Part shown: positions 7,457 through 28,730 of the stretch, in pieces | Numbering within the stretch: position 1 is the stretch's first letter | How the letters are laid out: each line of letters begins with the position of its first letter | Notes under the pieces: model-generated | What the model was told of the DNA's origin: nothing | Seen by the model: only the letters and a program-made list of their open reading frames with translations | The model's database searches: none | Assembly (NCBI GenBank): GCA_963724765.1 | Contig: CAVRVY010000001.1 | Location: 192,001 to 256,000 of the forward strand | Reading direction: 5' to 3' | DNA from: an uncultured delta proteobacterium | GTDB lineage: Bacteria > Desulfobacterota > Binatia > Binatales > Binataceae | Length of the DNA: 64,000 nt | Position numbers and translations under genes: made by a program

Positions 7457-7651
7457 ATCAACTCCGCCGGCGATTCCGCGGTTTGGTGGAGGCTAGGGCG
7501 GGCGTTCACTCAAGGTTGGTCGACTGGTATAGAGATCACCTCAATTATTTGAGCATGGTGGACGGCGCGCTTCGTACTCCTTTACGTGAGCCGGATCGAG
7601 TAAAAGTTCAGAAGGCCTCTGAAATGAGGATCCAAAGATAGAGTGCCGCGC

Positions 7652-7667
7652 TGGCACAATGATTGCT
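7652..7667 (+). promoter_or_regulatory. Sigma-54 promoter consensus
   Basis: TGGCAC-AATGA-TTGCT, exact -24/-12 consensus in an intergenic gap. Confidence 0.55.
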
Positions 7668-7706
7668 TTCGACGGTCTGAGCATGTTACGAGTAACCAAA
7701 CCCTCG

Positions 7707-8162
7707 TTACTTCTTGCGCACCTCGCGGCGCGTCAGATGACCAGCCTCGTCATAGTATTCCACTATGTCGATGACACCGCGTTCGCTTGGATCGCGCTCC
7801 ACTATCGCGAGCGTTCCGTTGGGGCGAAAGGTCTTGACAGTCTCAGGCCTCCCGTCGTAGTCGTCATCGCGAATCTCGCGAACCACAACACCGTTGTAAT
7901 ACTGCTGGACCAGATCGACCCGCCCGTCGAAATTTCGGTCGCTCTCGACCTCGACGATTCGATCGCCTTTCACGTCTTTGATAAGGTCCGGTTTCCCGTC
8001 GCCGTTGGTATCGATCGCTATCTGGTACTCATCGCGGCTGACGCGCCGGACCCACTGGTCGGGCCGGCCGTCGCGGCCGCGATGAGTGACGACTCCGTAA
8101 GAGCCCCTGTCGCAGGAGAGAAGTGTGAGAGCTAGCGCCACATACAGAGCTGCTGTGCGCAT
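7707..8162 (-). CDS. Lipoprotein with DxNxDG (EF-hand-like) repeats
   Basis: Lipobox LLSC; DTNGDGKPD, DRNFDGRVD, DDDYDGRPE motifs. Confidence 0.7.
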   Translation of the reverse strand: MRTAALYVALALTLLSCDRGSYGVVTHRGRDGRPDQWVRRVSRDEYQIAIDTNGDGKPDLIKDVKGDRIVEVESDRNFDGRVDLVQQYYNGVVVREIRDDDYDGRPETVKTFRPNGTLAIVERDPSERGVIDIVEYYDEAGHLTRREVRKK

Positions 8163-8508
8163 GCTTCCTTATACACAGCGGCGGGCTGCTCCTCAACTTT
8201 GCCGTCTGCTTCTGACCTTGGTGCTCGTTTCTGTTCCATTGAACGGAATGCCTGCAGCCCGAGCGTCGAGGCTTATTCCCCTCAGAACAACCTTCGTACC
8301 CTTCGACACGAGCATTCAGTCGCCTAACCCGACGGCGATTCAGTTCAGCGTTGCGGCGCCATCGCACAGGCGTGTTGCCTTGGCTCCTAGTACGATCTCC
8401 TTCCCGATCCCGCAACAGCGAAACGTCTCTCCCGACATGGTTATCGATGACCACTGTCGATCCGGTGTCGCCGGCTTTCCCAGCATACGGTCACCTCCTC
8501 GAGCTTGA
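8161..8508 (+). CDS. Hypothetical protein ending in RSPP, upstream of efflux operon
   Basis: Hydrophobic N-terminus and C-terminal IRSPPRA, a tail seen in small ORFs preceding metal transporters; weak. Confidence 0.35.
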   Translation: MLPYTQRRAAPQLCRLLLTLVLVSVPLNGMPAARASRLIPLRTTFVPFDTSIQSPNPTAIQFSVAAPSHRRVALAPSTISFPIPQQRNVSPDMVIDDHCRSGVAGFPSIRSPPRA

Positions 8509-23788: not shown

Positions 23789-25288
<1,500 letters not shown>

Positions 25289-26980: not shown

Positions 26981-28360
26981 CTAGTGATGGCCGTGCTGCT
27001 GCGGGGCATGCTGAGCCGGGGCGCCGTGCTGAGGCGGGGGCGCTGCCAGACGCGATAGCGCCCGCACCTGGGCGGTATGACGGTTTTCAAGTGCCTGCTC
27101 ACGGGCAGCCTGCGTACGCTCGAGCGCCTGCTCCTGCTGCATATGCTGGCGCGCGCCGGCCTGCTCCTGTTGCAGATGCTGGCGCTCGAGCGCCTGCACT
27201 TGCTTATCATGCTGGCGCTCTAAGGCTTGCACCTGCTGTTCGTGCTGGCGCGCAACTTGTTGCCATTGCTGCTCGTTGGGGGCACCCTTTGACGCCTGCA
27301 GCACGCTCAGCAACAACCGTCTCAGTTCCAGGGCTCTCAGTTGCTTGATATGCTGCTGCTCCAGCGCCTGCAATTGCGCCCCGTGCTTGCGCTCTTCTAT
27401 CTGCTCCTGTTCGGCATGCTGTCGCTCGAATTTCTCTACCTGGTCGGCATGATGAGCCTCCAGCGTTTGCAGCTGCACGCTATGCTGACGCTCGACCGAT
27501 TGCTGCAGCGTCTGCCTCCATTCCGGATGACGCTGGACTGCAACCTGCGGCTGCTTGACTGCCCACCAATTCACGTCGCGCCAGACATGCTGCTGGTCAT
27601 AGTCGCCCTGCCATTCGGGATGATGCTGGCTCGCCCAGGTGGGGTTATGCTCGTGCCACCACGAGTCGTTGTGCCAGACATGATGGTCGTCGAAGTCGCC
27701 CCACCACTCAGGATGGTTTTCCTGCACCCATTGCGGCTGATGCGCCCACCACCAATCGGCGGGATACCATACGCCTTGATAGTAATCGCCCCACCATTCG
27801 GGGTGATTCTCGCTTACCCAGACGGGGTAGTTCTGATACCACCATCCGGCGGGATACCAGATGCCCCGGTATTCGTTGCCCCACCAGTCAGGATGATTTG
27901 CCAGGAACCACTGGCGCCGATGCCGCCACCACCAGGCGGCGGGATACCAGACGCCGTTGTCGATGAAACCCCACCATTCGGGATGGTTCACCTGCACCCA
28001 CTGGGGTTGGTACTGCCACCACCATCCGGCGGGGTACCACAAGCCTTGATGGTAATCGCCCCACCATTCGGGATGATGCAGCCGGGTCCAAGCCGGTTGG
28101 TTCTGCCACCACCATCCGGCGGGACGCCAGACGTGATCGCTGTCGTAGTCGTCCCACCATTCGGGATGATTCGCGCGGACCCAGTCAGGCTGATTCTCCC
28201 ACCACCACGACGCGTCGTGCCAGACGTGCCCATGGTCGTAGTCGCCCCACACGGGTGCGGGAGGGAGTGGAGAGGGCCAGGACTTGAACTGCGCCAGCGT
28301 GGGTGCCGTCAGCATCAGCATCATGATTGCCGTCGCCGCCAGACTCTTGATTCCGCTCAT
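26981..28360 (-). CDS. Secreted tryptophan-rich tandem-repeat protein with C-terminal coiled coil
   Basis: RBS-like GAAGGG before ATG at 28360; signal peptide ending PTLA; eight W-rich repeats; Q/E/H-rich tail. Confidence 0.8.
   Translation of the reverse strand: MSGIKSLAATAIMMLMLTAPTLAQFKSWPSPLPPAPVWGDYDHGHVWHDASWWWENQPDWVRANHPEWWDDYDSDHVWRPAGWWWQNQPAWTRLHHPEWWGDYHQGLWYPAGWWWQYQPQWVQVNHPEWWGFIDNGVWYPAAWWWRHRRQWFLANHPDWWGNEYRGIWYPAGWWYQNYPVWVSENHPEWWGDYYQGVWYPADWWWAHQPQWVQENHPEWWGDFDDHHVWHNDSWWHEHNPTWASQHHPEWQGDYDQQHVWRDVNWWAVKQPQVAVQRHPEWRQTLQQSVERQHSVQLQTLEAHHADQVEKFERQHAEQEQIEERKHGAQLQALEQQHIKQLRALELRRLLLSVLQASKGAPNEQQWQQVARQHEQQVQALERQHDKQVQALERQHLQQEQAGARQHMQQEQALERTQAAREQALENRHTAQVRALSRLAAPPPQHGAPAQHAPQQHGHH
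27055..27490 (-). repeat. 11-aa (33 bp) repeats, consensus RQHxxQxQALE
   Basis: RQHSVQLQTLE, RQHAEQEQIEE, RQHEQQVQALE, RQHDKQVQALE, RQHMQQEQALE and others. Confidence 0.8.
27518..28249 (-). repeat. Eight tandem 90-93 bp coding repeats (WGDY...WxPAxWWW...W...HPEW)
   Basis: Recurring CCCCACCATTCGGGATG and CCACCATCCGGCGGG on the + strand; 244 codons = 4x31 + 4x30. Confidence 0.92.
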
Positions 28361-28450
28361 TCGCCCTTCGTCCTCCAGCCCATCAACTAACGCGTGAGCC
28401 GCTCGATGCTCTGCCCTTTCCACCAGTTTCCACTTAAACGAGTGTCCGGG

Positions 28451-28730
28451 CTACTGAATGTTCAGAGCGGTCCTATGCGAGCGCCATTCGAGCGGCAGCT
28501 CGATGCGCCGGGTGACTGCTTCTGCAGTAAGACTGGTCGGCTGCCGGCCCTCCACAATGGACTCAACGATATCCGGCGCCAGGAATGCCAAGCGGATCAG
28601 GCGACCTACATAGCGAACGGTGAGCCCGTCGCGCGCAGCGATCTGAGCGAGAGAGGTCGCTTTCCCGGTGCTGATCGCATCGAACCAGCGATGTGCCCGG
28701 GCGACGGCTTTCAACAGCGGCAGATCGACC
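28451..28730 (-). pseudogene. Large serine recombinase C-terminal remnant
   Basis: LLKAVARAHRW...IAARDG...YVGRLIRLAFLAPDIVESIVEGRQP...LPLEW. Confidence 0.7.

Follow-up and report, generated by a model that had tools for sequence, protein, structure and literature searches.

What kind of protein is encoded at 26981-28360 on the minus strand of the stretch analysed here (the window, 64,000 nucleotides (nt) of contig CAVRVY010000001.1 from an uncultured delta proteobacterium of the Binataceae), and what might it do in its host? The product has 459 residues, in which a signal peptide and a Pro-rich linker precede eight modules dense in Trp, two predicted long helices with His at 11-residue intervals and a His-rich tail (Table 1). 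The available evidence is that the gene is real and constrained, and that the protein founds a new family, probably with a new repeat fold, these last points resting on negative searches and a predicted model. What it does is a matter for weighing; binding of metal ions in the periplasm is the reading that we tentatively prefer.

The open frame spans 26981-28423 on the minus strand, and the ATG at 28360, which gives the 459-residue product, is favoured over the GTG at 28423 because a GGAGGA stands 10 nt ahead of it. The composition is extreme, with 53 Trp in 459 residues (11.5%), 13.9% Gln, 8.5% His and no Cys. When the 6,069 six-frame open reading frames (ORFs) of at least 200 residues in the genome are ranked by Trp content, that of the repeat protein comes first (11.0%, compared with 8.5% for the runner-up and a median of 0.9%); this is not chance. 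Comparison with five orthologs gave ratios of nonsynonymous to synonymous substitution rates (dN/dS) of 0.12-0.20 for the repeats and 0.16-0.44 for the C-terminal part; dS exceeds 1 in most of these pairs, and the least saturated one (L006) gives a dN/dS of 0.196. The protein is under purifying selection. Contigs with near-identical, indel-free pieces of the gene occur in four DNA runs from four peat/soil studies, one of these runs being possibly the source sample. Other contigs, aligned at 90% likeness and with short flanks, lack 142 or 210 nt within the repeats; these are probably relatives or mis-joins at repeats, and no use was made of them. Antisense and out-of-frame ORFs inside 26981-28423 (e.g. 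27341-28390 on the plus strand, 349 residues) were rejected as genes, being by-products of composition; they are open because the TGG/CCA-rich sequence of the repeats is without stop codons.

The earlier note on this DNA had described tandem Trp repeats with an invariant HP(E/D)W, diverged at the DNA level and kept in the protein, and on recounting this description holds. The motif HP[ED]W stands at residues 65, 96, 126, 156, 186, 216, 247 and 278, so delimiting eight units of 30-32 residues, with 7, 7, 7, 7, 6, 7, 6 and 4 Trp respectively; the total is 51 Trp within residues 37-281, a stretch of 245 residues rather than the 244 given before. Tandem Repeats Finder reports periods of 90 + 93 nt for the modules and of 33 nt for the 11-residue repeats that follow. 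Mean identity among the eight units is 64% for nucleotides and 52% for amino acids, and a different codon is used in 114 of 277 pairwise comparisons of conserved non-Trp residues. A consensus built from 140 units of 20 proteins separates 70 modules of 30 residues, W-G-D-[YF]-Y-Q-G-x-W-Y-P-A-x-W-W-W-Q-x-Q-P-x-W-[VA]-R-x-[NH]-H-P-[ED]-W, from 70 of 31 residues, W-G-D-[FY]-D-D-x-H-V-W-[RH]-P-A-x-W-W-W-Q-x-x-P-x-W-[VA]-R-x-[HN]-H-P-[ED]-W. Across the 140 units, five Trp are fixed at 97-100%, as are the module His and the H-P pair that opens the final motif, and the 31-residue type keeps D5 at 100% and H8 at 83%.

The 11-residue repeats and the His-rich tail that had been noted behind the modules are likewise present. 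Over residues 282-440 the autocorrelation of His peaks at lags 11 (0.65) and 22 (0.61), with no other lag up to 24 above 0.05. For hydrophobic residues the recurring lags are 3, 8 and 11, which would place the His residues on the Leu/Val seam face. The clean 11-residue period and the 4-3-4 seam spacing are those of hendecad coiled coils, from which the protein differs in placing a His at a seam position in almost every repeat. His-293, His-373, His-428, Glu-345 and Glu-425 are invariant in 22 sequences and His-384 is kept in at least 90% of them; the lag-11 autocorrelation of His reaches 0.44 or more in 17 of 22 orthologs. Five His are found among the final 21 residues of the protein. Tails rich in His or in Gly/His characterize 19 of the 22 orthologs, and short relatives too; at least three His occur in the last 30 residues in 19 of 22 ortholog tails, and 12 of 22 end in HH.

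A lack of homologs, which together with a lack of expression the earlier note had set down as a ground for abandoning its reading, is not what the searches gave, since multi-module relatives were found at 37 loci (one genome per species). A word-indexed search of 5.8 billion clusters returned 7 proteins, among them P0002, a full-length match at 45% identity; exhaustive HMMER searching with the repeat region gave 81 of 1.84 billion cluster representatives at E ≤0.001, 32 of them at ≤1e-10, many being fragments. The 37 loci come from soil metagenome-assembled genomes (MAGs) labelled Candidatus Binataceae, Binatus or 'uncultured delta proteobacterium', and from a few MAGs with other labels, e.g. 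'Acidiferrales'. Their products share a plan of leader, PWPSP-type linker, modules, helices rich in Gln, Glu, Arg and His, and Gly/His tail, and a tolerant count finds 8-11 modules in all but one of 22 aligned proteins. Within the Binataceae, 107 of 165 genomes, in 19 of 30 genera, are matched at E ≤1e-5; these numbers include four unpublished genomes (G498, G416, G558 and G553), without which the count is 103 of 161. By our own count, a strong multi-module match (best E ≤1e-40) exists in 64 of the Binataceae genomes. None of 396 genomes outside the Binataceae in a sample of the wider phylum was matched. Thus, among the genomes sampled, multi-module forms are found only in the Binataceae, and relatives with one to three modules in a few other soil lineages.

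Two short paralogs are present in the same genome (G000), a secreted protein of 128 residues with two modules and an ORF of 154 residues with one; their neighbours are housekeeping genes. The former (L003, 985-1371, plus strand; contig C1, ~1.384 Mb) adjoins a secreted 310-residue protein (L003, 1489-2421, minus strand), the C terminus of which is similar (tblastn, E 1.3e-7) to the window protein in its Gln/Arg-rich helix and His tail. The one-module paralog, which is lipoprotein-like (L049, 6451-6915, plus strand; contig C4, ~1.379 Mb), lies directly upstream of grpE-dnaK-dnaJ, and at L037 (1019-7548) a long ortholog is situated ~1.5 kb downstream of dnaK-dnaJ; this proximity may be due to chance or to an old shared location. 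A profile of the short proteins recovered 73 more relatives, every named one being a 'hypothetical protein'; the few for which an organism is given belong to Binataceae or to single MAGs of Acidoferrales and of alphaproteobacterial origin. Some short proteins of other soil lineages (P0058, P0047, P0063, P0054, P0069, P0089 and P0119) combine two or three Trp/His modules with N-terminal helical modules of the FLxxHPxxAxxLxxNPxL type and have His-rich tails. At least 14 of 85 stored relatives shift into another frame of the same repeats, giving stretches such as MVVAV and SSRMVGR (P0005, P0006, P0008, P0009, P0012, P0014, P0015, P0017, P0025, P0026, P0029, P0032, P0050 and P0077). The shifts are taken as indel errors of assembly, which yield long chimeric gene calls because all frames are open in TGG-rich DNA; some may be real frameshift variants.

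The solenoid that had been proposed for the repeats is also what AlphaFold2 predicts. Modelled alone from a 22-row alignment, the repeat region has a predicted local distance difference test (pLDDT) score of 90.2 and a predicted template modelling (pTM) score of 0.79, with each module forming a β-hairpin followed by two 7-residue helices. The interior of the predicted solenoid would be largely Trp, given that every 30 residues contain five to seven fixed Trp. The model of the whole protein, from an 18-row alignment, has a pLDDT of 77.5 and contains long helices at residues 279-356 and 363-439; as modelled, these two helices with the break between them fit a helical hairpin as well as a stalk. 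Foldseek found nothing in the PDB at E ≤0.001 for either model (best E 2.9 and 3.8), VIA-align placed none of 48,161 representative chains at Z ≥2, and profile searches of PDB sequences reached best E values of 0.095 with the long family and 0.19 with the short family. A missing structural match is not proof of a new fold.

In its tandem stacking of units, each with one β-hairpin and two short helices, the model is similar to α/β solenoids with repeats of ~30 residues; the module topology is ankyrin-like. By contrast with ankyrin, with its Leu/Ala core, the core here appears to be based on Trp, and assignment to the ankyrin-type solenoids finds no footing in the searches, Foldseek and VIA-align having given no repeat-protein match and Pfam no repeat family. 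Equally, the view that the protein belongs to no named family has withstood searching: hmmscan of Pfam-A and NCBIfam returned 0 families at E ≤10 for the repeat protein, and likewise 0 for the orthologs P0002 and P0004. Three families suggested by the Atlas language model, RcnB (PF11776; 0.76), WXXGXW (PF12779; 0.78) and DUF2502 (PF10697; 0.84), all scoring <0.9, found no support in profiles, hmmscan being negative for them in the repeat protein, the paralogs and the short relatives; a PF10697 profile search of the genome gave 17.1 bits, at an unrelated place. No published description of such a protein was found in the literature searched, which did not extend to supplementary files, and in PMC8262859 the word 'tryptophan' has 0 occurrences.

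The secretion that had been proposed for the protein is consistent with a leader whose layout is kept in 26 of 30 ortholog N-termini inspected; the signal peptide is called from sequence features and this conservation. The protein has no lipobox (it has no Cys), and the genome encodes both Omp85 and LpxC. By its gene content the host, a Binataceae soil bacterium, is diderm, and the protein has the features of a soluble, Sec-exported protein without a lipobox in such a host. Arrival in the periplasm is therefore to be expected; the periplasm would be its final site, unless it is released from there.

How might an exported Trp/His repeat protein serve the cell? Our best guess, which we put forward tentatively, is that it is a metal-binding or metal-buffering protein of the periplasm. 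The conserved polar residues, as read from the sequences, are His, Asp and Glu, and these regularly spaced side chains would bind divalent metal ions (of the Ni, Co, Cu or Zn type). In the 31-residue modules the candidate ligands lie in the GD-x-D-D-x-H turn and the terminal HHPEW; others are offered by the ladder of His and Glu that runs between the helices, and by the His tail. With the Trp solenoid as a rigid scaffold, the protein may act as a metal buffer, store or chaperone. In being exported, small to mid-sized and Cys-free, with conserved His, Asp and Glu and a His-rich flexible end, it is similar to His-rich periplasmic metal-binding proteins such as ZraP, RcnB and SilE/PcoE, and some of its relatives adjoin a metal-transporter-like gene. 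It differs from such proteins in giving no sequence match (hmmscan, E ≤10), the 0.76 language-model lead being all that points to RcnB; none of them is known to combine tandem modules rich in Trp, or to carry a ladder of His at 11-residue intervals. The transporter-like gene is present at 17 of the 37 ortholog loci, 0-5 kb downstream and on the opposite strand, i.e. convergent, and encodes a membrane protein with a His-rich loop and a weak NicO match (PF03824; E 6.9e-5, 22.8 bits, below the 27.7-bit cut-off). At L011 the NicO-like protein has 277 residues (7605-8438, minus strand); in some loci, genes for a FecR-domain protein and for a lipoprotein-like protein of 693 residues intervene between it and the repeat gene.

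Several observations weigh against a role in metal binding. The 17 loci with the NicO-like neighbour form one close clade (~85% identity) and the neighbour is convergent, because of which its proximity reflects shared ancestry as much as linkage; the NicO-like homolog of the window genome itself (70% identical) is on another contig (C2). None of the 13 flanking proteins of the window is shared as a neighbour with the 37 ortholog loci, no metal-regulator site was found, and no part of the protein matches a known metal-binding family, even at E ≤10. The 30-residue modules, which make up half of the units, have one conserved His each. The His and Asp may owe their conservation to structure alone, e.g. 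to roles as helix caps or turn residues, and the division into buried and exposed residues comes from sequence patterns, not from model coordinates. Finally, the 22 runs listed for the gene sequence include no RNA run.

The alternative that survives best, which we nevertheless consider unlikely, is that the protein is a structural element of the envelope, i.e. a rigid spacer, fibre or adhesin in which solenoid and helical rod set a distance or coat a surface, the His having no metal role. The elongated form of the model, a solenoid followed by long helices, is consistent with this, as is the range of module numbers, varying number of modules being common in surface and spacer proteins. The gene also stands alone, with changing neighbours. 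Against this reading, there is no anchor: a lipobox is absent, Pfam searching detected no β-barrel, sorting signal or secretion-partner domain, and conserved secretion genes do not adjoin the gene.

A stress-related role is suggested by the upstream regions. The motif G[GT]AAAC-N15-18-CGTA is present 69-107 nt upstream of the start at 15 of 31 ortholog loci (L006-L033), compared with 0.04 on average, and never more than 1, over 500 rounds of shuffling, and its hexamers are kept in two clades with differing spacers. We take it to be of the extracytoplasmic function (ECF) sigma factor type, by its likeness to the sigma-W/sigma-E consensus sequences. The protein could then be an ECF sigma-controlled periplasmic protein of the Spy/CpxP/ZraP kind, whose helical hairpin would hold on to unfolded proteins of the envelope. 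It is similar to these proteins in its expected periplasmic location and in the two long polar helices predicted for it, where conserved residues come at regular intervals; the positions of the one-module paralog upstream of grpE-dnaK-dnaJ and of the L037 ortholog downstream of dnaK-dnaJ point the same way. By contrast with them, it has a Trp solenoid of 245 residues in front of the helices, which a holding role leaves unexplained, and it has neither an LTxxQ motif nor a Pfam match, so that it is not placed in the LTXXQ family. Moreover, the window copy lacks the CGTA, many of the 15 loci are closely related, and a strict form, GKAAAC-N16-17-CGTAYC, has 3 matches across the genome, none ahead of a clear gene. 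A scan for sigma-70 promoters and intrinsic terminators gave 0 of each. Taken together, we regard a chaperone of this kind as improbable.

It is also doubtful that the Trp residues form exposed faces for binding an organic ligand, e.g. haem or another tetrapyrrole, a pigment, humic or phenolic aromatics, or a polysaccharide. The extreme Trp density and the peat and soil origin of the DNA runs with the gene would suit such a role, and the short relatives offer a further hint, in that many begin with one or two helical modules for which there are weak matches to the mycobacterial haemophore family (PF16525 MHB, E 8.7e-4; TIGR04529, E 3.4e-5). In our scans these matches are always below the curated cut-offs (19.9 and 24.6 bits compared with 27.4 and 32); a precomputed PF16525 match exists for 2 of the 73 short relatives. 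The window protein differs in having no such module and no match to the family, to which it is accordingly not assigned, and the Trp/His module itself is unmatched. At such a density of fixed Trp (five to seven in 30 residues), most of them probably belong to the core and not to a binding face, and no uptake or degradation genes are linked.

A more far-reaching reading, which we consider rather a long shot, is that a new fold with a continuous Trp-stack core and a regular lattice of His, Asp and Glu would, with the His-lined helices, form a high-capacity metal store in the periplasm, or even a long-range Trp charge conduit; either, if true, would stand apart from the kinds of protein described to date. 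That the protein serves as a chain of Trp and Tyr conducting holes or electrons over long distances across the periplasm is most improbable, since density and regular spacing of these residues are all that favour it, and there is no cofactor motif (no Cys, no CxxCH), no conserved redox partner nearby and no homology to redox proteins.

Table 1. Features of the repeat-protein gene and its upstream region, in window coordinates, with the basis of each assignment
Feature	Position	Strand	Basis
Whole coding sequence, 459 residues and stop	26981..28360	-	ORF list and translation; 37 loci with orthologs of the same architecture; repeat dN/dS 0.12-0.20
Putative -35-like counterpart, GGAAAC	28426..28431	-	Upstream comparison with orthologs; the -10 place reads GCATCG, not CGTA
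Shine-Dalgarno-like GGAGGA, 10 nt 5' of the ATG	28371..28376	-	Direct reading of the sequence
Signal peptide, residues 1-24 (basic n-region, hydrophobic core, A-Q end)	28289..28360	-	Sequence features
Pro-rich linker, residues 25-37, QFKSWPSPLPPAPV-type	28250..28288	-	Kept in orthologs
Eight Trp-rich modules of 30-31 residues, residues 38-281	27518..28249	-	Motif positions; 140-unit consensus; AlphaFold2 pLDDT 90.2
First long helix (predicted), residues 282-356, six 11-residue repeats, His 293/304/315/326/337	27293..27517	-	Model and periodicity
Helix break (predicted), residues 357-362	27275..27292	-	Secondary structure of model
Second long helix (predicted), residues 363-439, six 11-residue repeats, His 373/384/395/406/428	27044..27274	-	Model and periodicity
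Pro/Gln/His tail ending HH, residues 440-459, predicted disordered	26984..27043	-	Model and sequence

The surroundings of the gene in the window (DUF2784, TPR, ATP synthase β, a PagL-like protein and Fe-ADH) give no clue to function. Just upstream of it, 28451-28714 on the minus strand holds an 87-residue ORF with no Pfam match, which we take to resemble the C-terminal piece of a recombinase; together with the absent synteny, this may mark a rearranged spot. The ATP synthase β gene (Pfam ATP-synt_ab; 23789-25231, minus strand) heads a run of same-strand ORFs down to ~18668, of which the β subunit alone was checked; the β-first order is reminiscent of N-type ATPase operons. At the closest ortholog loci, L007 and L008, the gene follows yidC-jag-like ORFs and faces a small ferredoxin-like ORF, by our own reading of N-termini, and P0003, with its precomputed R3H and KH domains, is consistent with jag.

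A natural domain with ~20% Trp that is under selection, and confidently predicted to be unlike the folds in the PDB, would add a new architecture to the repeat proteins, and would offer an attractive scaffold for design, spectroscopy or charge-transfer studies. For the Binataceae, which are common uncultured bacteria of soil and peat, the repeat protein is one lineage-specific exported protein, and its ligand would inform on how these bacteria handle metals or organic matter in acidic soils.

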